NCBI GenBank assembly: GCA_964368835.1
Contig: CAYJCZ010000003.1
Location: forward strand, 64,153 to 128,152
DNA: 64,000 nt
Origin: an uncultured Candidatus Saccharibacteria bacterium
Lineage (GTDB): Bacteria > Patescibacteriota > Minisyncoccia > Phycocordibacterales > UBA6065
Reading direction: 5' to 3'
The notes under the pieces: generated by a model
Database searches by the model: none
Seen by the model: the letters and a program-made list of their open reading frames with translations, nothing else
Told to the model about the DNA's origin: nothing
In this document: positions 7,395 to 46,429 of the stretch, piece after piece
How positions within the stretch are numbered: position 1 is the stretch's first letter
Layout: the number at the start of each line of letters is the position of its first letter
Translations under genes and position numbers: made by a program

Positions 7395-7765
7395 TCCTTC
7401 TTTCGCTTGTGGATCATGATTCTGTTTCCGTCAGGATCACTAATGAGCATCATACGACATGGTCCCGCGTCTTGTGGCGGCATGATCACCTCGACTTTAT
7501 TTTTCGTCAGAGTTTCAACAGCTTCATCAAAATTCTCTACTTCTAAAGTAACGATTGCGCCATTTGGACCAGGACTCATCTGTGGAGCACCTGCGCCTAT
7601 CACAAGTACATCCTCATCACTACCTATCCAATATTCGATAAAGGCCATTCCGTCGGCTTCATATACACTTGATGGTTTAAGGCCAAGAACTTCCTCATAA
7701 AACGTTCGAGCTCGTTTTATATCTGTCACGGTGTATCCCGAAAAAGCGATTTCTTTAACTTTCAT
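7391..7765 (-). CDS. VOC/glyoxalase-bleomycin resistance fold protein
   Basis: 124 aa with betaalphabetabetabeta-type motifs (HIAFSV-like, GAPQMSPGPNGAIVTLEV). Confidence 0.7.
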   Translation of the reverse strand: MKVKEIAFSGYTVTDIKRARTFYEEVLGLKPSSVYEADGMAFIEYWIGSDEDVLVIGAGAPQMSPGPNGAIVTLEVENFDEAVETLTKNKVEVIMPPQDAGPCRMMLISDPDGNRIMIHKRKKD

Positions 7766-7799
7766 ATGGGCAGGTTTAAGAATAATTGATAATTGTACA

Positions 7800-7979
7800 C
7801 TATTCGTTATTTTTAGGACTCATTTTCGGAGCCGATCGTGATCTACTTCGTAAACCTCCTTTCTTACTTACTTTTTTTCGATCATTATTATTTTCTTTTT
7901 TATCTTTACCCTTTTCCTTCTTTTGATTGTCATTGTGCTTCTGATTAGAAGCAGGTATTTGTGTTTCGTCTTTAGTCAT
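7800..7979 (-). CDS. possible small Lys/Asn-rich basic protein (59 aa)
   Basis: Unlisted minus-strand ORF reading MTKDETQIPASNQKHNDNQKKEKGKDKKENNNDRKKVSKKGGLRSRSRSAPKMSPKNNE in an otherwise empty 390 nt gap. No clear SD. It could be chance in AT-rich DNA. Confidence 0.2.
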   Translation of the reverse strand: MTKDETQIPASNQKHNDNQKKEKGKDKKENNNDRKKVSKKGGLRSRSRSAPKMSPKNNE

Positions 7980-14794: not shown

Positions 14795-15069
14795 TTACCT
14801 AGTCTAGCAAATTTAAATCTAAATGTCAAGCTTTTTTGTCTTTTAGCTTTAATACCTATCTATACGCCAGTTTTAAGCCTATCTAGTAAGGAAATTTGAT
14901 AATTTCATATCTGTATTTATTTTTGACAGAAAAAACTTATTAGAGAATATTTAAAATATAAAGCAAGTTTATTTTGTAAATGTCAGGTGTATCATTTTTT
15001 ATTGTAGGTTATTAAACCATTATTTATAGGCATATAATAGGGTATTAAAATAGAATCTGTCAGATATAC

Positions 15070-15098
15070 TTGACAGAAATAGGGTTTAAGTATATACT
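15070..15098 (+). promoter_or_regulatory. strong sigma70-type promoter driving the hammerhead-ribozyme operon
   Basis: TTGACA (15070-15075), exactly 17 nt, TATACT (15093-15098). Confidence 0.65.
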
Positions 15099-15127
15099 AC
15101 TCAACAGATTATTCTTTGAGTCAAATT

Positions 15128-15222
15128 TGGTAACTTCTTAATGCCCCTGATACACGACCCGTCTCCCAGAAAATAACGAGACTGCTTGGCGAGTATCACC
15201 CGGAGGCATTAAGAAGTTACCA
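15128..15222 (+). ncRNA. structured 5' leader closed by a perfect 18 bp helix, function unknown
   Basis: tggtaacttcttaatgcc ... ggcattaagaagttacca pair perfectly over 18 bp. Inner helices ctgatac/gtatcac and cgtctc/gagacg. Starts about 25 nt after the predicted transcription start. Confidence 0.4.
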
Positions 15223-15474
15223 AAACCCCAACCCCAAATATAGAAACCATGGACTACAAAGTCTATCCTGACGGCACCGTTGAGGTGATCCGTCGCTATT
15301 AATCCTCCAGGAGGGATTCGTTCTACGTCGTAATGTGGTTTGAGCAAAATCCGGCTCTGTCAAAATAGGAAAAAAGTTTTGTCCCCATCTTTCTTAGAAA
15401 AGACGGCGAGCCATAAGGGAGCAGAACCTTTCGGGAGACAACCCGCGTAAAAACAACCAAGTCATCGACTTGGT

Positions 15475-15526
15475 TTCCGTCCCGAGATGTTTTCTCGGCT
15501 GATGAGTCCAAAAGGACGAAACGGAA
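15475..15526 (+). ncRNA. hammerhead ribozyme 1 (type III)
   Basis: Stem III ttccgt/acggaa, cleavage triplet GUC, stem I ccgaga(uguuu)ucucgg, core CUGAUGAG, stem II guccaaaaggac, then CGAAAC. Confidence 0.85.
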
Positions 15527-15606
15527 TGCTCTTTGAGAAATGTTGGTCTATACCTCCTCGCACTTAATTTTGAGTTCGAAGAGGTGTAGGCCATTCGTGT
15601 GGCCAT
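15527..15606 (+). repeat. module A' (diverged copy of the 84 nt post-hammerhead structured module)
   Basis: Aligns with 15931-16014. Stem positions differ with compensatory changes, and a C-A mismatch is kept at the same position in both hairpins. Confidence 0.6.
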
Positions 15607-15875
15607 CTAACCCTCCGCGGTTTTCTCCTCGACATACAGAGGGGTCCGTATGGAGTACCGCTAGATTCAGCTTTCATACCCGAAGGGTAATGACCGACTG
15701 AATAGTGTGGAAAAGAAACCCATGTCGGGTTTCATGAGGGAGACGTCCTAAAATTAAAGAATACATAAAAAATCTTTAATTACACGAATTATTTAGTTTC
15801 AAGCAAGGTTTAACTTAAAACCTGCCCGAAGGTTGTAGCAATTGAGTCTTCATGGACTCTTGCTCCCTTCGGATC

Positions 15876-15932
15876 CTGTCTCAGCCCAAGGCTGACTGAC
15901 GAGTCTTCCGAGCGATCGGCAAGACGAAACAG
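15876..15932 (+). ncRNA. hammerhead ribozyme 2 (type III)
   Basis: GUC site, stem I ucagcc(caa)ggcuga, core CUGACGAG, extended stem II with a bulged C capped by a GCGA GNRA tetraloop, CGAAAC, stem III cugu/acag. Confidence 0.85.
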
Positions 15933-16014
15933 AATGTTCTTTAAAAATCTGGCCTGTACCATCTTGAATTTAAGTTCTTGAGTTCAAAATGGTGTAGGTC
16001 AGTCGTGTGGCCAT
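15931..16014 (+). repeat. module A, copy 1 (84 nt conserved structured element after the hammerhead)
   Basis: 83 of 84 nt identical to 16828-16911. It folds into a long imperfect hairpin with closing helix ccugUacc/ggUGuagg. Confidence 0.8.
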
Positions 16015-16237
16015 TTCACCCAGAATTTCCTGCTGGACGATAGAGCAGGAAAGAATGACCCCAAGAGGGCAAAGTGATTCTGTCCAAGTTTCACTATAAG
16101 GGGCCAGTAACCCTAAGCGAAAAGCACACGAATATTTAGTTGGTTTAGAAGAAACCAACCAGGAGAGAGGTAGAACTCGACGGAATCCAAGAGGATTCTA
16201 TTAGTCGGCTACCAACCTCTCCTGCAAGTGTCTCCGT

Positions 16238-16285
16238 CTCAGACGGACTGATGAGCTTTCCGATTTGTTCGGCAAAGCGAAACAC
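16238..16285 (+). ncRNA. hammerhead ribozyme 3 (type III)
   Basis: gugu-C site, stem I uccguc(uca)gacgga, CUGAUGAG, stem II gcuuuccgauuuguucggcaaagc with a bulged C, CGAAAC, stem III gugu/acac. Confidence 0.85.
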
Positions 16286-16302
16286 AGATGTTCTTTGAAT
16301 AA

Positions 16303-16359
16303 GTTGGTTTCGGAAGCGAGTGCATAAATGTGCTATGTGCGCTCACTTCCGAAACCAAC
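16303..16359 (+). repeat. module B hairpin, copy 1 (~21 bp stem) between a hammerhead and the cargo ORF
   Basis: gttggtttcggaagcgagtgc ... gcgctcacttccgaaaccaac. Homologous hairpins at 17219 and 18434 show compensatory base-pair changes. Confidence 0.75.
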
Positions 16360-16414
16360 ACAATCGATAATCTCCCATTCGGGATGACACGGTTCACTGT
16401 GGTGAGGAATTCTT

Positions 16415-16771: not shown

Positions 16772-16829
16772 AACGCAGGTTCTGTCCGAAGATGTATATC
16801 TTCGCTGATGAGCTCTAAAGAGCGAAACA
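16772..16829 (+). ncRNA. hammerhead ribozyme 4 (type III)
   Basis: uucugu-C site, stem I cgaagau(guau)aucuucg, CUGAUGAG, stem II gcucuaaagagc, CGAAAC, stem III uucugu/acagaa. Confidence 0.85.
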
Positions 16830-16911
16830 GAATGTTCTTTAAAAATCTGGCCTGTACCATCTTGAATTTAAGTTCTTGAGTTCAAAATGGTGTAGGCCAG
16901 TCGTGTGGCCA
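16828..16911 (+). repeat. module A, copy 2
   Basis: Near-identical to 15931-16014, with a single t/c difference. Confidence 0.8.
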
Positions 16912-18009: not shown

Positions 18010-18120
18010 TCGTCGGCGCGGCAACTCCCGGGAGATCCAAGTGGATCGCGATGAACCGGCGGAGATGGAGAAAACCATCTTGGCAACAGAATCAAAACAC
18101 TGGGTCAGAAAAGATCCTGT

Positions 18121-18169
18121 CTGTCCATCGATGTGTATCGATGCTGATGAGCTCTAAAGAGCGAAACAG
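18121..18169 (+). ncRNA. hammerhead ribozyme 6 (type III)
   Basis: cugu-C site, stem I caucgau(gugu)aucgaug, CUGAUGAG, stem II gcucuaaagagc, CGAAAC. Stem III extends to aagauc/gaucuu. Confidence 0.85.
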
Positions 18170-18198
18170 AACGATCTTTAAAACCAAAAAAGGAGAAT

Positions 18199-18306
18199 TA
18201 TGAAAATCAAAATGCCGAACCGCATGGATACTTATCGCGCCGTGCGCAAAGTGCTTCCACCGCCGTCAAAAGCTTTTGCCCCAAGCAAAGGCAGAGGCGG
18301 TTATGA
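18199..18306 (+). CDS. cargo ORF 3: very small basic protein (35 aa) directly after HHR6
   Basis: Strong SD AAAGGAGA 7 nt upstream. Reads MKIKMPNRMDTYRAVRKVLPPPSKAFAPSKGRGGL. A +1 frame continues to 18349, so a longer frameshifted form is possible. Confidence 0.3.
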   Translation, partial: YENQNAEPHGYLSRRAQSASTAVKSFCPKQRQRRL

Positions 18307-18368
18307 CCGCAAGCGCGAGAAACGCGATTCCAGAATGGGGTTCGAATGATTTACATCAATGCTCTTTT

Positions 18369-18417
18369 CTGTTTCGAGATGTGTATCTCGACTGATGAGT
18401 CCTAAAGGACGAAACAG
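18369..18417 (+). ncRNA. hammerhead ribozyme 7 (type III)
   Basis: cugu-U site, stem I ucgagau(gugu)aucucga, CUGAUGAG, stem II guccuaaaggac, CGAAAC. Confidence 0.85.
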
Positions 18418-18433
18418 ATGTTCTTTGAATATA

Positions 18434-18484
18434 TTGGTTTCGGAATAAAGTCCACTCGATGAGCTGACTTTATTCCGAAACCAA
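18434..18484 (+). repeat. module B hairpin, copy 3
   Basis: ttggtttcggaataaagtc ... gactttattccgaaaccaa, perfect 19 bp. Third covarying variant. Confidence 0.75.
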
Positions 18485-18563
18485 AGCCACTGATAAGTCC
18501 CTCTAGTTCCTATTTCATAGGGATAAGAGATGACACAGCTGTGCCAAGGGGAGGAATACCACC

Positions 18564-18869: not shown

Positions 18870-19347
18870 TCAGTGAGTTGCGGAACTCAACAAAACCCGC
18901 TCTTGCATCCCGATCGATGCAAGTATATGTAATGTAGCTATTTCATCTGAATCAGATGGAATATCGGTCCCAAGCCCGCGTAAATACAGAGGGTCATTAT
19001 CCAAGCCCAGAAAGAGAGCTCCGCAAGGAGATGGGAAATGCTTGAGCGAATCCTGATCAGGTTTGCCATCGTGTTAGATCCAGCGGAATCTGGACGCGTT
19101 GTCACAACGACGCACGACTGAATCTGCTATTTCCAGCAGATAAGTTGTCGGCATTAAGATTGCCGAAAGTTCATGGCTGAACATTCATTGCTCTTTACAT
19201 CAAAACATCAAAACTTAGGCGCCGGGAGAATCGAGAAAATCTCCCTTGCCTGTCACGACTCGAATCACTCTTGTGTAAATCTAAGACAGTAGGCATCCTG
19301 AAAAGGAAGAAGCCCTACCGAGATTTATAAAGGAGGTTTAGAAGATA

Positions 19348-19380
19348 ATGACGAATGACCGTTCCAATCCTTGCACATAG
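19348..19380 (+). other. micro-ORF (10 aa) behind a perfect Shine-Dalgarno
   Basis: AAAGGAGG followed 8 nt later by ATGACGAATGACCGTTCCAATCCTTGCACATAG (MTNDRSNPCT). Confidence 0.2.
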
Positions 19381-19590
19381 TGCAGGCTACTGATTGATAA
19401 GCCCCGGGAGCATACGGAACGGTAAAAATGTTACGTTTTAAAACGACAATCCTACAACCAGCAAATTGGTTGGGTAACATCAAACATCTCGCCGGAGGGT
19501 TCGCCTAAAAAACGAACCCTCCCTTTATCAGGCTTGCGAATGGTTCGTCGGCCTGTAGAGACCGCTCTTTCACAACATATTAAGGAAATT

Positions 19591-19866: not shown

Positions 19867-19915
19867 AAAACTTCGAGAGACAACTCGTAAAAACCCGAGA
19901 CTAAAGGCTCGGTAT

Positions 19916-19963
19916 CTGTAGCGAAGTGTAACTTCGCCTGATGAGTCCAAAAGGACGAAACAG
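19916..19963 (+). ncRNA. hammerhead ribozyme 8 (type III)
   Basis: cugu-A (GUA) site, stem I gcgaagu(guaa)cuucgc, CUGAUGAG, stem II guccaaaaggac, CGAAAC. Confidence 0.85.
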
Positions 19964-20012
19964 AATGTTCTTTAAATAATTTTTCTTCCCGCACTGTAAA
20001 CCAAATAGAAAA

Positions 20013-20195
20013 ATGAAAACAACTGCAATCATAGTCGGACTCGTGCTAGGCACCTGGGGATTAGTCGGCGGATACTTATTGATCCGTGATCGTCATAACA
20101 GCGTTGCCCCACGAACCATTGGTATCGTGAGTCTCGTTGGCATGATGAGTTCCGCGATCGTCTTGACGCTCGCAATCGCCACCATGGCAGAGTAA
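20013..20195 (+). CDS. cargo ORF 6: small membrane protein (60 aa, two TM segments)
   Basis: Hydrophobic ORF 50 nt after HHR8. Confidence 0.4.
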   Translation: MKTTAIIVGLVLGTWGLVGGYLLIRDRHNSVAPRTIGIVSLVGMMSSAIVLTLAIATMAE

Positions 20196-20228
20196 GACTA
20201 ATCGGTTCTAGGTTATCCTCAAAACCTA

Positions 20229-20277
20229 CTGTTTCGGAATGTGTATTCCGACTGATGAGCTCAAAAGAGCGAAACAG
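20229..20277 (+). ncRNA. hammerhead ribozyme 9 (type III)
   Basis: cugu-U site, stem I ucggaau(gugu)auuccga, CUGAUGAG, stem II gcucaaaagagc, CGAAAC. Followed by a 13 bp hairpin (20300-20347) and then the ORF. Confidence 0.85.
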
Positions 20278-20401
20278 AATGATCTTTAAAAAACTTCAAA
20301 CTTCGTCATAGCAGAAAGCGGCTACTCCTGGCCTCTCCCTGCTATGACGAAACCATTACGGCCAAGTCCTCTAGCGAAAACTAAATCAAGGATATAAACT
20401 C

Positions 20402-24012: not shown

Positions 24013-24228
24013 TTTGCCTATAAGGGCTGTCGTTTGTGTTTCCATACGACCATTAATGACAGAACCGTTGGTTTTGCTAAGCGAGTGATGTTGGCAACGT
24101 GTAGACAACTATCCTTAGCAAAATAGCTAATCAGCGATACTATGTTGGACTGGTAACGGTTTTGGCGTTATCATAATCCATGACAATTCAATAGGTAAAG
24201 TAGCCTAACCCATCGAGCAATCGGTGGC

Positions 24229-25107
24229 ATGGTGAAAGTTAGTCGATCAAGCATAAAAAACCCGTCATGGGGTTGCTTGATCGCCGTATGGGGAAACCTG
24301 TACGAGGGACTTCGGTTCCTACCCGTGGCGGGCTTTTTGTTCGCCGCACATTACAAGCCGATCAAGCAAAATATGCACATTGTTTTTATCTTACTTTCCT
24401 TTTTGGCATTTCTAGGATTTTTTGCAGGACTCATTAAACCTTCGTGGTTTAAGATGAAATCCCGCAGACAATCATCAGGAGTGTTTGCCGGAACTTTCGT
24501 CCTTCTTATGATCCTTACGATCATCGCTTCTCCGGCAGAAGAAGTGCCTCCATCTGTTGTCGTTCAGTCAACTGCGCCAGCAGTAGCTCAACCTGTCGTA
24601 GCGACGGAGCCAGTTCAGCCGCCAAAGCCAAAAACCCGAGAAGAGCTCATTACGCAAAAGATAGAAGCTTCACTTGGGGCTACGACCAACACAAGCAAAC
24701 CGCGCGTAGTTTCCGTCGAACTCACAGCCTACAAATCATCTGAATTGAGTACTTATGGATATGCCTCGACCAATACCGTCCAAGGCGCATTCATCAAGAC
24801 AAATGCGAGCGAGAATCTCACATCGAATCTCCAGAAGATGACCTTGCATAAAGAAGCGGCAAAAATATTTCAAGACACTTTCTCATCTTTCTCACAGATT
24901 GGTGATGTGATTATTTGGGAAAGACTGCCCGTGAGCGACCAATATGGAAATCAAAAGGATGATACGGCGATTGTATATGCTATGAGCCGATCATTGTATG
25001 ACAAAATTAACTGGGCAAGCTTCTCATACACAACCTTGCCAGATCTCCTGAAGTCAGAGGGTCATACCGATGACCGAAATTCGTATTACGAAGCGATCCG
25101 ATTCTAG
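24229..25107 (+). CDS. membrane-anchored hypothetical protein
   Basis: 292 aa with TM helices near the N-terminus (a possible internal start at 24373), then a Pro/Thr/Val-rich linker and a C-terminal domain. Confidence 0.5.
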   Translation: MVKVSRSSIKNPSWGCLIAVWGNLYEGLRFLPVAGFLFAAHYKPIKQNMHIVFILLSFLAFLGFFAGLIKPSWFKMKSRRQSSGVFAGTFVLLMILTIIASPAEEVPPSVVVQSTAPAVAQPVVATEPVQPPKPKTREELITQKIEASLGATTNTSKPRVVSVELTAYKSSELSTYGYASTNTVQGAFIKTNASENLTSNLQKMTLHKEAAKIFQDTFSSFSQIGDVIIWERLPVSDQYGNQKDDTAIVYAMSRSLYDKINWASFSYTTLPDLLKSEGHTDDRNSYYEAIRF

Positions 25108-40795: not shown

Positions 40796-41830
40796 CTATA
40801 CAAAGAGCCCCTGCTCTTTTTCGCCAGCTATCTCGAGGATCGCAAGCTCGAGAGGTAATTCTCTGATAGGAGAAATTCCGATGTAATCGTATGTACCGAG
40901 AAGCGATCGCAAAAGTTTTGAGTCTACTTTTGTAGAGATTTCTTGAATAAATTTCTTGTCTTCATCAGAAGCCTGAGATACAACATCCTCTGCGACGGAC
41001 ATTTTTACAAACAATGCCAAACGTATCATTGAAACAGTAAGCTCAAGAAAAAGCTTTGGATCAAATGACTGCGCACGGATTTTTGAGATAACCTCGAATG
41101 CAGCTTTACTATTCTTTTCTGCAAGTGCCTTTACAAACATTCGCACAAGCTCTGATTTTGGAGAACCGGTTGCTTCTTCGACATCTACCTTAGTAATTTT
41201 TTTCCCGTTCACTCCTGCGACAACGCGCTCCAATATTCCGTGAGTGTCACGAAACGATCCGTCACCTACGAGTGCCACAAGCTCTGCAGCGGCAGGCTCA
41301 ATACTGTAGCCTTCCTTTTTAGCTACGGCCGTTACAGTATCCTTGAGTATCTCAACCGTTGGACGCTTGAATTCAAATACCTGACAGCGAGAAACAATGG
41401 TCTCTGGGAGCTTGTGAACCTCAGTTGTAGCGAGAATAAATACGACGTGCTTTGGTGGTTCTTCAAGAGTTTTCAAAAGCGCATTGAACGCCTCTTTTGT
41501 AAGCATATGCACTTCATCTATGATGTAGACCTTGAATTTTGATTCGAATGGAAGAGTTGCGACAGCATCTCGAAGCGCGCGAATATCATCGATACCACGG
41601 TTTGATGCCGCGTCGATCTCATAAATATCATTTGCTGACGTTCCTATTTCAGATGCAAAAATGCGGGCAATGGAAGTCTTACCAATACCGCGTGAACCTG
41701 CAAAAAGGTATGCGTGAGCAACAGCCTCATTTTCGATAGCACCCTTCAGAGCCTTAACAACAGAATCTTGGCCAATTACTTCTTTAAAGTTTTGCGGACG
41801 ATATTTTCGGTATAGTACTTCGTGTGACAT
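40796..41830 (-). CDS. dnaX: DNA polymerase III subunit gamma/tau (short form)
   Basis: YRPQNFKEVIGQD...GSRGIGKTS Walker A, DEVHML, SRC motif. The 344 aa short form is typical of reduced genomes. Confidence 0.9.
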   Translation of the reverse strand: MSHEVLYRKYRPQNFKEVIGQDSVVKALKGAIENEAVAHAYLFAGSRGIGKTSIARIFASEIGTSANDIYEIDAASNRGIDDIRALRDAVATLPFESKFKVYIIDEVHMLTKEAFNALLKTLEEPPKHVVFILATTEVHKLPETIVSRCQVFEFKRPTVEILKDTVTAVAKKEGYSIEPAAAELVALVGDGSFRDTHGILERVVAGVNGKKITKVDVEEATGSPKSELVRMFVKALAEKNSKAAFEVISKIRAQSFDPKLFLELTVSMIRLALFVKMSVAEDVVSQASDEDKKFIQEISTKVDSKLLRSLLGTYDYIGISPIRELPLELAILEIAGEKEQGLFV

Positions 41831-42166
41831 GGATAGAGTATACCAAATAGAGTGGATTTACATAAAAGCAAAGCGGGCAGAGGGGTGATGGGAACCCTCT
41901 GCCCGCGTTAGGCGTATTACTCACACAATGTCAGCTATTTCTCTTTTATTTTAGCCTGCGATGTCAGGCTTTCATCCCAGTTCCATCTGACCAGGATAAA
42001 GAACAAATTGGTTTGGAAGACGATTAGGTCCGGTTGTAGAGCCATGAAGTGCCCTATCCTTGAAATGAACGTCTTCCTAACTACTGTGACAATACACCCG
42101 GCTGGACATGTTTGCAAGTTAGTTGTGCACAAAAAAACGGACGAATAAATTCATCCGTTGTAGGGC

Positions 42167-42595
42167 TCAGTGAACCCCTGCAAACTTTCGCTTTTCCTGT
42201 AGCTCCTTGAGGCGTTTCTCAGCCTCTTTATGAGCTTTGGTTTTCTTTTTTGGTGTGACCACTGTGGCTGATGGTTTGCCAATCTTTGCCATAGCCTCCT
42301 TTATCTCTTCATCCTCAAAAAGAAATGGATCTGCGTCCCCAACTTTTTTATAAAGAAAGACCTCGGCACCAAGTTGAAGATAATCCAAAATAATGGCTTT
42401 GGAATCCGCAAAGCTACGTTCGCCGCAGCTCCACATACTCCACACTCCATCACTGGTCTTTACCTCGTACCGTAACATGCCTTCATCAGCCGTATCATCT
42501 TGATTACCCGCAAGTGTCCTACCCACTCCTTTATGATGAATGTTTCGGCGTGCTCTAATGAGCCATTCAACCTTTTCACCTTTCGGTTTTTTCAT
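42167..42595 (-). CDS. hypothetical protein (142 aa) downstream of a long structured leader
   Basis: GGAGA SD before the ATG. Preceded by a minus-strand terminator/attenuator hairpin. Confidence 0.55.
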   Translation of the reverse strand: MKKPKGEKVEWLIRARRNIHHKGVGRTLAGNQDDTADEGMLRYEVKTSDGVWSMWSCGERSFADSKAIILDYLQLGAEVFLYKKVGDADPFLFEDEEIKEAMAKIGKPSATVVTPKKKTKAHKEAEKRLKELQEKRKFAGVH

Positions 42596-42667
42596 TGGTT
42601 CTCCGATTTGAGTGTTGATCTTGAAATCTGTTCCGCCCCAACCATACTATTTTGAAAATTGATTGTC

Positions 42668-42705
42668 CAGAAAAAAATCACCCGCTACTTTCGTAGCGGG
42701 TGTAG
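42668..42705 (-). terminator. minus-strand rho-independent terminator or attenuator about 70 nt upstream of the 42595 start codon
   Basis: Minus strand reads cacccgctacgaaagtagcgggtgattttttt. Confidence 0.6.
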
Positions 42706-43298
42706 AAGACTTCTGTTCAATATTCCTCAGTACTTTGCTTCTTTGGAGCTGAGGGGCCATTAAGTGGCCAAACTTTCATGATTGTGAGCGAGCCCATTGT
42801 TTCTCATTAAATCTCCGAAGAAATTTGATGTGAAGCTAGATAATTCTGAGGCTATCTAGTGTTTACTTTGGGTGTCCGACTAGCACACTACCTTTCTCCC
42901 TTTCGGGTTTTGTTTCTTTCCGTATATTCTCTTAGGGGGCAACCGGCATCACATTGTGCCGGCGAATTACACGGTCGTGTTCATACTGATGATTGATTGT
43001 CGCCTGCGGAATTGCAGGCGACTCTCGAGGCCGGCGCCGTCAGACGGGATTCAGCGCGCCGCGGGCGATGTCGATGGAATTCAAATGACTAACGCTGCGG
43101 TACTGCGGGGGACCTTTATTCATGGCGAGGTTCACTCCAGCAGTTCTAAAACATCGTGCGCAAACTTCAAATGAAGCCTGCAATAAAACACGAAATCAAA
43201 GAACTGGTTACTCAAGTATCATATCATACTATTCTAAATTGTCAACACAAAAACACGATTATTGATACTTGTCGAAAAATACCCTTATATAGAGCCAT
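42706..43298 (-). ncRNA. candidate large structured ncRNA or riboswitch-type leader (~600 nt)
   Basis: The largest intergenic gap in a dense genome. It holds several GC-rich perfect hairpins (ccggca...tgccgg, cgcctgc...gcaggcg) in AT-rich DNA and ends at the terminator. No protein-like ORF on either strand. Its class could not be assigned by eye. Confidence 0.35.
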
Positions 43299-44279
43299 TT
43301 AAACGATATCTCCTCGAGATTTGATGAAATCTTTTACCTTCTCCCCCACTTCTTTTGCATCTTTTGCCTCCATAAGCTCGGTTCGAAATTCCTTGGCACC
43401 TTCAAAGCCGTTTACGTACGCTTTGTAATGCTTTTTCATAATTGCAAAACTTTTTATGTCACCCAAAAGCTTTTCATAAAGCTTTGTATGCTCAACCATC
43501 ACCTCCAATTTCTCTTTTATAGTAGGAATTGTTTGCTTTCCGTGAAGCGACGAGAAAAGCCACGGATTTCCAAATATTGCCCGACCGAGCATAACGCCAT
43601 CGGCACCAAACTCCTGGGCTTTTGCTCGTGCATCGTCTAAATCTTTAACATCACCATTTCCCAATATTAAAGTTTGAGGAGAAATTTTGTTTCGCAATTC
43701 TATAACTTCACGAACATGTTCCCAACGTGCGGGGACAAGGGACATCTCCTTTCGAGTCCTACAATGAACAGTAAGCGCGGCCACACCCTCCTCTAGAATT
43801 TCAGGTATCCATGTAGCAATTTCATTTTTGTTGTACCCAATGCGAGTTTTCACAGAAATCGGCAGTTTTGGTGCACCTTCTTTTGCAGCACGTATAATTT
43901 CTCGTGCTAGTTTAGGATTCTTGATCATTGCCGCACCGCATCCCTGCTTTTCAATAGATCGGTCAGGGCAACCCATGTTTATATCAATGCCATCAAAACC
44001 AAGTTTCTGACAAAGTGCCGCTGCTTCGCGCATCTTTTCTGGCTTTGAAGAAAAAAGCTGAGCGACGATCGGTTTTTCTTTTTTAGTAAATTCCAGGTCT
44101 CGTACAAGCACTTTCCTCCCCTCTGAACAGAGACCGTCAGCAGACACAAACTCAGTCCAGAAAACATCTGGCTTACCATACTTTTCTATAATTCTTCGAA
44201 ATGCAGCATCGGTGACATCCGCCATTGGCGCGAGTACAAAGAAGGGTTTTTTGAGTTTTGCCCAGAATCCTAATTCCAT
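43299..44279 (-). CDS. dus: tRNA-dihydrouridine synthase
   Basis: TIM-barrel Dus motifs (LAPMADVTD, catalytic Cys in NMGCP). Confidence 0.9.
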   Translation of the reverse strand: MELGFWAKLKKPFFVLAPMADVTDAAFRRIIEKYGKPDVFWTEFVSADGLCSEGRKVLVRDLEFTKKEKPIVAQLFSSKPEKMREAAALCQKLGFDGIDINMGCPDRSIEKQGCGAAMIKNPKLAREIIRAAKEGAPKLPISVKTRIGYNKNEIATWIPEILEEGVAALTVHCRTRKEMSLVPARWEHVREVIELRNKISPQTLILGNGDVKDLDDARAKAQEFGADGVMLGRAIFGNPWLFSSLHGKQTIPTIKEKLEVMVEHTKLYEKLLGDIKSFAIMKKHYKAYVNGFEGAKEFRTELMEAKDAKEVGEKVKDFIKSRGDIV

Positions 44280-44295
44280 AGAAAGTCACTTTACC

Positions 44296-45162
44296 CTAGA
44301 TTTCTCCAGTGGTCGAGGATTTCATCTTATAGACAACCTTGTTACCTGAATCAATTTTGATGTAATCAAGTTCAGCCAAAAATTTTGCAAAATTTGGTGC
44401 GATTTTTGTATCCAAAACAATAGTCTCAAGATTGGCGAGCACTTTAGCTAAATCATCTTTGGTACTTACAATTATTTTACCTCCATCAAAAAGAGTAATT
44501 GTCATGTAACCATTTTCAAGTATTTCAGCCTCTACCGGTTTAAGCGAAAGCCTCTCTACTTCCTGCATAAAGAATTCCATCTTTTTAAATTCATCAGGTG
44601 GCAAAAAATTCTTGCCGAGAGGGTTTTCAGATATTAACCCCTTGTATACAAAACTTGAGCTTGTTGCCATCGACGAAAGGCAAACTCCTGCACCACAGCT
44701 AACGTGCGATGGGGCAAATACCATTCCAGCCTCATCAATGAGAAAGCATGAGGAACCATCGGCGTTGGAGCACCAACGGGCCGCCTCTTCCCTTTCTGTG
44801 ACAAACACAACAAGAGCATTGAGGCCACGCCGTGACACATCAACCCTCTTTACCGCAGGTAATTGTGCAAGAGTTTCCTCAATATCATCTTTTGGAAATA
44901 GAAAAGTATTTCGCTTTGAAAAAAGATAGCCGTAGTTGCCACTTATTTTCTCGAGCACAACGCTGCGCAAATCTGCCTCTGCAACTCGAGTGGCACCTTC
45001 AGTCACAATCTTTTCGATTGATAGTGAATTGAGCTGGCTAACAAACGAAAGTCCAGATACAACAATCGCAAGAGCGATAAAAGAATACAGAGACAAAAGA
45101 AATACCCGCCTGCGGCGCTTGGCAACGATCTTTTTCTGGTAGACCTTTACCTGCCCACGCAT
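44296..45162 (-). CDS. FtsQ/DivIB-like cell-division protein (TM segment plus POTRA domain)
   Basis: N-terminal basic segment and TM anchor, then a POTRA-like region. Confidence 0.55.
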   Translation of the reverse strand: MRGQVKVYQKKIVAKRRRRVFLLSLYSFIALAIVVSGLSFVSQLNSLSIEKIVTEGATRVAEADLRSVVLEKISGNYGYLFSKRNTFLFPKDDIEETLAQLPAVKRVDVSRRGLNALVVFVTEREEAARWCSNADGSSCFLIDEAGMVFAPSHVSCGAGVCLSSMATSSSFVYKGLISENPLGKNFLPPDEFKKMEFFMQEVERLSLKPVEAEILENGYMTITLFDGGKIIVSTKDDLAKVLANLETIVLDTKIAPNFAKFLAELDYIKIDSGNKVVYKMKSSTTGEI

Positions 45163-45166
45163 GGCC

Positions 45167-46429
45167 TTATTTAGTTATCTTATCCTTTCCGAAGTATGGT
45201 CTGAGTGCTTCTGGTATGCGGATTGATCCATCTGCTTCTTGGCTGTTTTCTACGAGGGATACGAGAATTCGAGGAGTTGGAATTGCGGTACAGTTGAGGG
45301 AATGAGCATAACGGAGCTTTCCTTCTGTATCTCGGTAACGAATATTAAATCGTCGGCACTGGAAATCATGGAAATATGAGGCAGAAGAAATTTCTCGATA
45401 TTTTCCTTCTTTTGGAACCCAAAGCTCAATATCGTATTTCTTTACCTGGCCTAGTCCAAGATCACCTCCGCAGTTTATAACCGTGTGATATGGAATGCCG
45501 AGAGATTCGATAAACTCCTCGGTGTTTCGATTGAGTTCTTCGTGGAGTTTTACAGACGTCTCGTGGCTTGCCTCGCACAAAACCACTTGTTCGAGCTTGT
45601 AGAATTCATGAACGCGAATAAGACCCTTCACATCTTTTGAGTGGCTGCCGGCTTCTCGTCTAAAGCAAGGAGAAAAACCAAGATACTTTATTGGAAACTG
45701 CTTTGCATCCAGTGTTTCTTCGGAATGAAGTGCCATAACAGGAACTTCAGCGGTACCTGCGAGTGCATCGCCATCTTGAGTCATATAGTAATCCTCTACG
45801 TCTCCAGGAAGATGCGCTGTACCGTACAGATTTTCCTTTCGAACAATGACAGGAGGGATAATTGGAGTAAATCCCCTCTTTGAAAAGAAATCCATCGCGT
45901 AGCTCCAGATTGCAAACGAAAGACGAGCGCCTTCACCTGTTAGGAAATACCCACGGAAGCCGTGCACTTTTGCACCGCGTTCAAAATCAACCATCTTCAA
46001 ATTCGTCATGATTTCAACATGATCCTTTGGTTCGAAAGTAAAAGCTGTTTTGTCGCCCCATACTTTGACCTCCTTGTTCTCTGCATCTGTAGCTCCATCT
46101 GGAACTGACATATCAGGAATATTCGGCACCTTAAGCATTAGTCCCTGCCACTCTTTCATTACTTCTTTAAGGCTTTCATCTTCAGCCTGAAGCTCTGTCT
46201 TAAGCTTCTTCATAGATTCAAGAAGCGATGCTTTTGTTGCAGCATCAACCTGAGGGAGTTTTGCAGAAACCGCGTTCTGCTCAGCTCTTTTTGCCTCAAG
46301 GGAAGTCTGAAGTGCCCTCCTCTTATCATCGAGTGCAATTAAAGCAGCAATGTCTATATCGACATGCTTCTTTTGTGCACCCGCTTGGACTAGATCCTTA
46401 TTATCCCTTATGAACTTAATATCAAGCAT
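45167..46429 (-). CDS. serS: seryl-tRNA synthetase
   Basis: N-terminal coiled-coil arm and class II motifs 1-3 (FRREAGSHSKD..., GLGQ). Confidence 0.95.
   Translation of the reverse strand: MLDIKFIRDNKDLVQAGAQKKHVDIDIAALIALDDKRRALQTSLEAKRAEQNAVSAKLPQVDAATKASLLESMKKLKTELQAEDESLKEVMKEWQGLMLKVPNIPDMSVPDGATDAENKEVKVWGDKTAFTFEPKDHVEIMTNLKMVDFERGAKVHGFRGYFLTGEGARLSFAIWSYAMDFFSKRGFTPIIPPVIVRKENLYGTAHLPGDVEDYYMTQDGDALAGTAEVPVMALHSEETLDAKQFPIKYLGFSPCFRREAGSHSKDVKGLIRVHEFYKLEQVVLCEASHETSVKLHEELNRNTEEFIESLGIPYHTVINCGGDLGLGQVKKYDIELWVPKEGKYREISSASYFHDFQCRRFNIRYRDTEGKLRYAHSLNCTAIPTPRILVSLVENSQEADGSIRIPEALRPYFGKDKITK

Follow-up and report, generated by a model that had tools for sequence, protein, structure and literature searches.

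We analyzed a 703-nt interval (positions 42596-43298) within a 64,000-nt stretch of contig CAYJCZ010000003.1, hereafter referred to as the window, from an uncultured bacterium. This interval is flanked by dus and by an open reading frame (ORF) for a protein of 142 amino acids (aa), both of which are located on the minus strand. Every gene around the interval is encoded on the minus strand; read in that direction, the order of the region is serS (45167-46429), an FtsQ-like gene (44296-45162), dus (43299-44279), the gap, the 142-aa ORF (42167-42595), a further gap of 336 nt, and dnaX (40796-41830). The identity of dus is given by its match to the Pfam model Dus (E 6.7e-72), and the nearest species-level genomes by Dus protein sequence are metagenome-assembled genomes of Candidatus Taylorbacteria and Paceibacterota, with 87 and 81% identity, respectively. 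The host is a bacterium of the candidate phyla radiation (CPR) that resembles Ca. Taylorbacteria and belongs to the Parcubacteria/Paceibacteria group.

The initial annotation of the window had portrayed the interval between dus and the 142-aa ORF as an ORF-free, structured region, and the first part of this portrayal was borne out by our analysis: 42596-43298 contains no conserved ORF and none of at least 80 aa. The longest open frames in the gap measure 72 aa from start to stop and 96 codons from stop to stop (plus strand); frame and position of the open frames differ among homologues, and none of them matches Pfam. A protein-coding gap on either strand was ruled out by these inconsistent frames and the missing Pfam matches. 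The GC content at 42900-43200 amounts to 55%, compared to a window average of 43%. The gap had also been described as the longest non-coding one, which does not hold, as 14900-16414 is longer by the same ORF criterion; three other gaps (18870-19533, 18010-18563, and 19867-20401) are of similar size and equally structured, with fold z-scores of -4.2 to -10.8. Unlike 42596-43298, those gaps contain motifs resembling hammerhead and twister ribozymes.

A Predicted Transcription Unit Between dus and the 142-aa Gene

The minus strand of the gap carries all parts of a predicted transcription unit, whose product we designate RNA-1; its features are compiled in Table 1. The promoter P1, which is of the sigma-70 type, agrees with the consensus at 11 of 12 positions, has a TG upstream, and was the top site in a 2-kb promoter scan. 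Its predicted start at ~43212/43211 would yield an RNA of ~540 nt ending at the U-run of an intrinsic terminator. The initial annotation had placed such a terminator (hairpin plus U7) on the minus strand ahead of the gene that starts at 42595, and we found it to be exact at 42702-42671: its U-run is separated by 66 nt from the Shine-Dalgarno (SD) sequence GGAG (42604-42601) and by 75 nt from the ATG (42595). Between this terminator and the 142-aa gene lies a second promoter, P2, that begins 2 nt past the U-run and is followed by a 5' untranslated region (5' UTR) with the motif UGGGGCGGAACAGAUUUCAAGAUCAACAC.

We refer to related loci and contigs by L-numbers; those with a clear RNA-1 are L081, L084, L085, L086, and L089. 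All five have retained P1, the terminator, and P2, whereas the flanking spacer diverges. The P1 elements TTGAC and TATGATATGATAC are kept in each of the five aligned window-clade sequences. Differences between L089 and the window are concentrated upstream of 43213 and cease almost exactly at the predicted start of RNA-1. The terminator of L085 has four of its ten base pairs altered on both sides, and a terminator hairpin with a U-rich tail is present at the matching position in the more distant loci L102, L107, and L111. The P2 elements UUUCUGGACAA and AGUAUGGU are invariant across homologues, and P2 together with the 5' UTR is 84-100% identical to the window, a value above those of RNA-1 and of the coding sequence; the 5' UTR motif reads GGGGCGG in L102 and GGGGCG in L107. 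Since a P2-type site (TGGACAAAC-17-TAGCGT) also fronts the homologue of the 142-aa gene in L104 and L105, which have no RNA-1, P2 is by sequence comparison the ancestral promoter of the 142-aa gene, with the P1-RNA-1-terminator unit located between dus and P2.

An RNA with its own promoter and its own terminator, both conserved across lineages, is what is predicted of an ncRNA (non-coding RNA) gene. Two interpretations had been offered by the initial annotation, a riboswitch or attenuator leader and an independent large ncRNA, and it is the latter that gains support from the conserved promoter and terminator of RNA-1 and from the separate promoter of the downstream gene. In our reading of the sequence data, the gap is probably a stand-alone gene for a highly structured ncRNA of ~540 nt (RNA-1, ~43212-42671, minus strand), a view that we hold with reasonable though by no means full confidence.

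The 10-mer ATAGTATGRT occurs as an exact match only at P1 and P2 within the window (43223-43232 and 42641-42650, minus strand). The idea that P1 and P2 are duplicated copies on either side of an inserted element was rejected, as the score of the longer local alignment was matched by 15 of 500 shuffles.

Predicted Fold and Conserved Parts of RNA-1

The minus-strand fold of the gap has a predicted energy of -179.5 kcal/mol, compared to -146.6 +/- 6.2 kcal/mol for dinucleotide shuffles (z -5.35); not one of 100 shuffles folded as well. The corresponding z-score for the plus strand is -3.27, and those of the homologues range from -2.9 to -6.0. Perfect hairpins are formed by the terminator (10 bp, seven of them GC), by 43022-42999 (9 bp, seven GC), and by the AT-rich 42859-42836; when the window is divided into tiles of this size, just one of the 91 contains as many. 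The several perfect GC-rich hairpins reported in the initial annotation are not fully borne out by these data: two long GC-rich ones exist, and the remainder are shorter or imperfect.

Table 1. Coordinates and properties of the features discussed in the text; positions refer to the window.
Feature	Position	Strand	Properties
Promoter P1 of RNA-1	43218..43245	-	TTGACA (43245-43240), 16-nt spacer, TATGAT (43223-43218)
RNA-1, predicted transcript, ~540 nt	42671..43212	-	Bounded by P1 and intrinsic terminator
H1, long 5' hairpin	43141..43206	-	~25 bp in four segments; within best-conserved domain
Small hairpin	43127..43138	-	GGAG-UGAAC-CUC; invariant in window clade; CC-AUG follows in 8 of 8 5' regions inspected
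C-rich segment	43094..43120	-	AAUAAAGGUCCCCCGCAGUACCGCAGC; nearly invariant in five aligned window-clade sequences; mostly unpaired in consensus fold
Candidate 27-codon ORF	43040..43123	-	MNKGPPQYRSVSHLNSIDIARGALNPV; AUG at 43123; overlaps C-rich segment
Variable GC-rich hairpin region	43023..43093	-	Gains and losses of 20-30 nt between lineages (alignment indels)
H5, perfect 9-bp hairpin	42999..43022	-	GUCGCCUGC-AAUUCC-GCAGGCGAC; 4 of 9 pairs altered on both sides across homologues
H6	42920..42974	-	Outer helix CCGUGUA/UAUACGG around hairpin GCCGGCA...UGCCGGU; conserved motif GAGAAUAUACGGAAA
Lineage-variable hairpin	42836..42859	-	Present in window, L089, L084; absent from L081, L086
UUCG-tetraloop hairpin	42809..42826	-	Kept in four window-clade sequences; 3 stem pairs altered on both sides (hand alignment)
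3' hairpins	42725..42769	-	GGCCA...UGGCC and CCUCAG-(18-nt A-rich loop)-CUGAGG; from fold and alignment
Intrinsic terminator of RNA-1	42671..42702	-	CACCCGCUAC-GAAA-GUAGCGGGUG, A, U7; 10-bp stem (7 GC)
Promoter P2 of 142-aa gene	42641..42669	-	TGGACA-17-TATGGT; begins 2 nt past U-run
5' UTR of 142-aa gene	42596..42640	-	45 nt, UGGGGCGGAACAGAUUUCAAGAUCAACAC...GGAG; highly conserved
Orphan 142-aa gene	42167..42595	-	Downstream of every RNA-1; found in a few Paceibacteria, almost always flanked by dus and dnaX
Second RNA, predicted, ~220 nt	~42082-41862	-	Promoter TTGCAA-17-TATTGT (42117-42089); terminator 41909-41860, 15-bp hairpin
Hammerhead_3 matches	15474-15527, 15873-15935, 16779-16833, 18118-18172, 18366-18420, 19913-19966, 20226-20280	+	Sub-threshold Rfam matches
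twister-P1 match	18926-18998	+	54.8 bits (gathering score 67.2); E 1.5e-10

These features combine into a picture in which a conserved 5' core, consisting of H1, the GGAG hairpin, and AAUAAWGGUCCCCCGCAGNAYCGCAGC, is followed by a fast-evolving array of hairpins. H1 is retained in L111 (CAGUUCUUUGA...UCAGAGGACUG), and equivalents of the small GGAG hairpin are present in L111 (GGAGAACGCCUCCCAUG) and L107 (GGCGUGAGCGUCGCCAUG). The near-invariance of the C-rich segment holds in L085, although RNA-1 is only 61% identical there overall, and the segment is a candidate functional site. Further downstream, L085 has a different perfect 9-bp hairpin at the position of H5 (GACGUCAGC...GCUGACGUC), and the H6 motif has its counterparts in GAGAUUACGAGGAAAG of L085 and GAGAUUCCUAUGGAAAG of L102. 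A GGAC...GUCC hairpin with an A-rich loop takes the place of the 3' hairpin at the equivalent position in L085.

RNA-1 Occurs in a Small Group of Related Loci

Altogether, we recognized six clear copies of RNA-1, five of them distinct, and three probable distant ones. All of these are situated between dus and the orphan 142-aa gene, upstream of dnaX, while most relatives are without such an insert. L081, L084, L085, L086, and L089 were matched by nhmmer with E-values of 1e-128 to 1e-166, and the close-homologue contigs L081-L086 share the order dus-gap-ORF-dnaX with a gap that is alignable throughout. L089 is identical to the window over 43212-42596, with 68% identity in the upstream spacer, 85% in dus, and 95% in the ORF. 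Across the set, identity to the window is 81-100% in the 5' domain (43211-43085), 78-94% in dus, and 72-95% in the 142-aa ORF; the middle and 3' parts of RNA-1 are 59-84% identical in L081, L084, L085, and L086, and 100% identical in L089.

Searches for more copies had a narrow yield. Comparison of the gap by blastn and nhmmer with 80 dus loci from GTDB species representatives gave no match; the distance from dus to dnaX in these loci ranges from 9 to 4509 nt, and the two genes are often adjacent. The closest species, L001 and L002, have no RNA-1 at the position downstream of dus. When metagenomes were scanned for the invariant motif GGTCCCCCGCAGNANCGCAG, one true match (L089) was obtained along with 14 chance matches in high-GC coding DNA, and the same scan of viral contigs returned none. 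RNA-1 is most likely restricted to a few related ultra-small groundwater bacteria of the CPR (Paceibacteria).

The gene neighbors of RNA-1 are also found without it. In L001, L104, and L105/106, a homologue of the 142-aa gene is positioned 61-90 nt after dus, and in L103 and L108-110 such homologues occupy another context, after gaps of 24 and 46 nt. In L107 (495-nt gap), L111 (683-nt gap), and L102 (partial contig), the position of RNA-1 is occupied by a structured stretch (fold z-scores of -3.7 to -4.3) that is equipped with a promoter and a terminator; (U)CUGGACAA or CUAGACAA comes next in each of them. The 5' hairpin and GGAG-N5-CCUCCCAUG recur in L111, GGCGUGAGCGUCGCCAUG is the shared motif of L107, which also has CCUAGAGGAAGnAGAnCCUCCA in common with L085, and the shared parts of L102 are GAGAUUCCUAUGGAAAG and the terminator/P2 block (nhmmer E 3.9e-10). 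On the basis of these sequence features, L102, L107, and L111 are probable distant homologues of RNA-1.

Identity to the window is mosaic along the locus: in L089 it amounts to 100% for RNA-1, 95% for the ORF, and 85% for dus, and in L081 to 96% for dnaX and 80% for the ORF. This pattern suggests frequent recombination in the population, in which RNA-1 and the ORF may have been exchanged as one block. In L001, the homologue of the 142-aa gene is succeeded by a structured gap of 429 nt (7484-7912, plus strand; z about -5) that contains promoter- and terminator-like sites and has no sequence similarity to RNA-1.

Covariation in the Predicted Helices

The consensus fold calculated with RNAalifold from five sequences comprises 111 base pairs, 15 of which show compensatory changes. 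The underlying MAFFT alignment places the middle and 3' parts of L085 wrongly, and the helices were also evaluated in a hand alignment, in which 93-100% of the cells are paired and 15 pairs in total are altered on both sides. These are contributed by the apical part of H1 (96% of cells paired, 3 pairs altered on both sides), H5 (98%, 4 pairs), the inner helix of H6 (97%, 1 pair), the UUCG hairpin (96%, 3 pairs), and the terminator (100%, 4 pairs). In the 5' domain, 95% of the cells are paired, compared to 32-45% when the partners are slid; the three apical H1 pairs altered on both sides are a number reached by 13 of 500 shuffles of these few, closely related sequences. We regard the structural evidence for RNA-1 as good and statistically short of decisive, the covariation being suggestive.

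Several of our data weigh against RNA-1 as a stand-alone structured RNA gene. The covariation values observed in the 5' domain were matched in 13-34 of 500 shuffles, and with only five distinct clear sequences, four of which are close to each other, the covariation is suggestive and not statistically strong. RNA-1 evolves faster than the neighboring genes (61-80 vs. 78-88% identity), which would fit weak constraint on much of its length. The ends of the transcript are placed by consensus motifs alone. A covariance model of the 5' domain finds the window clade only and misses L102, L107, and L111 even with filters off; because the model does not recover these three loci, their homology is one that we infer, and for L107 and L111 it rests on short motifs and a single nhmmer match (E 7e-5) that falls partly on the promoter. 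Duplex energies for pairing of RNA-1 with the 5' UTR of the 142-aa gene were no better than those of shuffles. Finally, an obligate ribonucleoprotein (RNP) is not implied, as the 142-aa family exists without RNA-1.

RNA-1 Does Not Match Known RNA Families

We searched the whole window and the five homologous loci against Rfam 15 at the gathering score, and a 1.1-kb region with 4227 models at E<=10 and lax filters. Nothing relevant was found for the gap or the five homologous loci at the gathering score, and the matches of the gap at E<=10 were at chance level only; ARAGORN detected no tmRNA. The initial annotation, which had called for an Rfam search, had found no likeness by eye to RNase P, tmRNA, SRP RNA (that of the signal recognition particle), or riboswitches, and the results of Rfam and ARAGORN agree with this. 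RNase P P4-like and SRP helix-8-like motifs (AAAGGUCC; ACAGAAG...CUUCUA) were considered by eye and dismissed, as they are without the required complementary partner and without covariation. The same applies to hammerhead cores: CUGAUGA (plus strand, ~42985) and CUGAGGA (minus strand) lack the following stem II and GAAA, and they are not conserved. No self-cleaving ribozyme was matched by Rfam at E<=10 in 42400-43500, whereas a comparable search finds matches to the hammerhead (seven) and twister (one) models at 15.4-20.3 kb.

RNA-1 is a candidate new family, matching no described one, within the known kind of large orphan bacterial ncRNAs. Among these, OLE RNA with its gene oapA (RF01071) provides a close comparison: both are multi-hairpin ncRNAs of ~0.5-0.6 kb with an unknown biochemical function, occur in one bacterial group, and are always located immediately upstream of one small protein gene. 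In contrast to OLE RNA, RNA-1 fails the OLE model, possesses its own promoter and terminator, and is conserved to a far lower degree; moreover, its neighbor is predicted to be a soluble ferredoxin-like protein with a basic tail rather than a membrane protein, and also occurs without the RNA. RNA-1 resembles GOLLD, ROOL, HEARO, and the raiA-motif in size class, high predicted structure, and orphan function; it differs from them in that it has no Rfam match, is not near tRNAs or prophage genes, is far narrower in distribution, and has a fast-evolving periphery. The order of promoter, ncRNA, terminator, and small protein gene is also that of type III toxin-antitoxin systems (ToxIN-like). Here, the neighboring protein differs in that it has no match in PADLOC, PHROG, or Pfam and occurs without RNA-1. 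Tandem repeats, a trait of type III antitoxins, were not detected in RNA-1: TRF reported no array at a score of at least 30, and a repeat search gave only short repeats at chance level. Nor does the 142-aa protein resemble a ToxN/AbiQ-type endoribonuclease by PADLOC, PHROG, or Pfam, and its predicted structure has no significant match in the PDB.

Alternative Explanations for the Gap

Regulatory leaders such as the T-box and the Trp leader also combine a structured RNA with a same-strand intrinsic terminator shortly before a gene, and RNA-1 could be a long cis-acting leader whose transcript starts at P1 and, in response to a signal sensed by the structured RNA (by a riboswitch, or by protein- or RNA-mediated attenuation), is ended by the terminator or extended into the 142-aa gene. 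This would be in keeping with a terminator on the strand of the gene itself and 75 nt ahead of its ATG, with the invariable position of RNA-1 directly upstream of one gene family, and with the stretch from the terminator to the ATG being the most conserved part of the locus. The leader reading is nevertheless disfavored because the conserved P2 follows the terminator and occurs as an ancestral promoter in relatives that lack RNA-1, in which the 142-aa gene persists with its promoter kept. In addition, no known aptamer or leader was found at E<=10 (the Trp_leader match of 15.2 bits, compared to a gathering score of 41, is noise), and inspection of the alignment and of single folds, a systematic search not being part of it, revealed no conserved anti-terminator partner of the terminator arms. 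The part of RNA-1 next to the terminator is the least conserved, with whole hairpins that come and go, and 540 nt is several times the usual length of a leader. A riboswitch or attenuator, as the initial annotation had envisaged, is not supported by these data, and we consider a leader function unlikely. Still less likely is that RNA-1 represents a divergent form of a known RNA (RNase P, SRP, tmRNA, 6S, OLE, GOLLD, ROOL, HEARO, or a group I/II intron) that escaped Rfam; we give this only a very slight chance. The RNAs of CPR bacteria are often divergent, and in some Firmicutes the SRP RNA gene lies beside dnaX, as in the scr-dnaX arrangement of Bacillus subtilis. Against this stand the 4227 Rfam models without a match at E<=10, the lack of matches in the homologous loci at the gathering score, the negative ARAGORN result, and the fact that no covariation-supported motif of the P4 type or of SRP domain IV was visible by eye. 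Furthermore, dus abuts dnaX or the orphan gene in most relatives, and therefore nothing essential is encoded at this locus.

RNA-1 might instead encode, as an mRNA or with a dual function, a peptide of 19-29 residues that starts at AUG 43123, maybe a proline-containing leader or arrest peptide. This AUG is present in all homologues examined (all eight 5' regions, including those of L107 and L111), the ORF stays open for 19-29 codons in each sequence with an in-frame insertion of 3 nt (AAA) in L084 and L086, and the first ten residues, M(K)N(K/N)GPPQ(Y/N)RS, are conserved, with Pro-Pro at codons 4-5 in L111 as well. Yet synonymous changes are absent from the codons GGT CCC CCG CAG ... CGC AGC even in L085, whose dus is only 78% identical, which suggests that the constraint acts on the RNA and not on the peptide. 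The GGAG is 11 nt from the AUG, paired within a hairpin, and replaced by GGCG in L107, where the frame reads MSESRR; residues past the tenth, length, and stop position are not conserved; the lengths of the short ORF are about those expected by chance for the composition; and Pfam gave no match. We judge a peptide-coding role to be quite improbable, and rate no higher the view that the gap is a weakly constrained or decaying insertion, i.e., a mobile or foreign remnant or an insulator of transcription between dus and the gene that follows, with hairpins devoid of a specific function. The spacer between dus and dnaX is indeed a hot spot whose content varies among Paceibacteria (9 to 4509 nt), most of RNA-1 evolves faster than the flanking genes, its GC content deviates (55 vs. 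43%), and its distribution is patchy. A decaying insertion would, however, have to be reconciled with a promoter, a 5' domain (81-100% identity), and a terminator that are upheld across lineages with 78-88% identity in dus, and with hairpins preserved through compensatory changes. Terminal repeats and a transposase are absent, blastn and the viral contig scan found no similarity to phage, plasmid, or viral contigs, and structured RNA genes in low-GC genomes typically have a high GC content.

The 142-aa Protein, a Second RNA Unit, and dnaX

The protein encoded downstream of RNA-1 has no Pfam, PHROG, or PADLOC match. Only four close homologues were found among 5.8 billion clusters, and a search of 1.84 billion representatives yielded just 12 clusters at E<=1e-3. 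In an AlphaFold (AF2) model built from 15 sequences (predicted local distance difference test score, pLDDT, of 77), a beta-alpha-beta-beta-alpha-beta core is joined by two helices, one at residues 96-106 and the other a long C-terminal helix rich in Lys and Arg. When this model was compared with the PDB by Foldseek, only generic ferredoxin-like matches were obtained (YkoF, Cas2, EF-G domains, and ACT/RAM domains; E>=0.26). The modeled fold and the basic tail would be compatible with nucleic-acid binding.

A second orphan unit of promoter, RNA, and terminator is located between the 142-aa gene and dnaX (41860-42117, minus strand; Table 1). The predicted RNA has a conserved core (CUUUAUCCUGGUCAGAUGGAACUGGGAUGAAAGCCUGAC) and a fold z-score of -4.46, its terminator shows compensatory changes in L085, and it has no match in Rfam. 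A 65-aa ORF with a TTG start within this unit appears to be spurious. A conserved TATACT is positioned 6 nt before the ATG of dnaX, which has no SD sequence (GGTATACTCTATCCATG; 41825-41846, minus strand); judged from its sequence, the dnaX transcript appears to be leaderless or nearly so.

Other Structured RNAs in the Window

Seven hammerhead type III-like motifs (Hammerhead_3) were found on the plus strand between 15474 and 20280, with scores of 36-48 bits compared to a gathering score of 48.5. Together with the twister-P1 match, they form a cluster at 15.4-20.3 kb in which every match is below the Rfam gathering score. The matches are located within direct repeats of 64-91 nt (CUGAUGAG...CGAAAC), in gaps that separate small ORFs, are poor in ORFs themselves, and are strongly structured. 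A LOOT RNA (RF03000) was detected at full model length at 24202-24320 on the plus strand (73.7 bits).

Possible Function and Significance of RNA-1

If RNA-1 is a stand-alone ncRNA, a small Paceibacteria clade would have acquired, or would later have lost, the P1-RNA-1-terminator unit at the spacer between dus and P2. The transcript may act as a free RNA or as the component of an RNP. Its working part would be the 5' domain, in which H1, the GGAG hairpin, and the C-rich segment AAUAAWGGUCCCCCGCAG are conserved, and the fast-evolving GC-rich hairpins would form a scaffold. Some read-through of the terminator into the 142-aa gene is conceivable and would not be its main purpose. RNA-1 and the 142-aa gene are constantly adjacent, and the basic-tailed 142-aa protein would therefore be the likeliest partner of RNA-1, by analogy with OapA and OLE RNA. 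A further-reaching proposal is that RNA-1 founds a new class of large CPR RNAs that forms an RNP with the 142-aa protein and maybe includes the second RNA, as a module beside dnaX; we put this forward as a tentative and rather doubtful extension.

We found no description of a large structured ncRNA from CPR bacteria in the literature searched. The narrow distribution of RNA-1 limits both its general importance and the power of comparative proof. CPR bacteria have tiny genomes and are mostly uncultivated. If our interpretation is correct, RNA-1 would be upheld in a compact genome of ~43% GC and linked to an orphan protein; one more family would join the small number of large bacterial RNAs that lack a known function and would offer a concrete target for metatranscriptomics and structural work. 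From the rapid loss and gain of hairpins around its conserved 5' core, one could also learn how large RNAs arise and decay.

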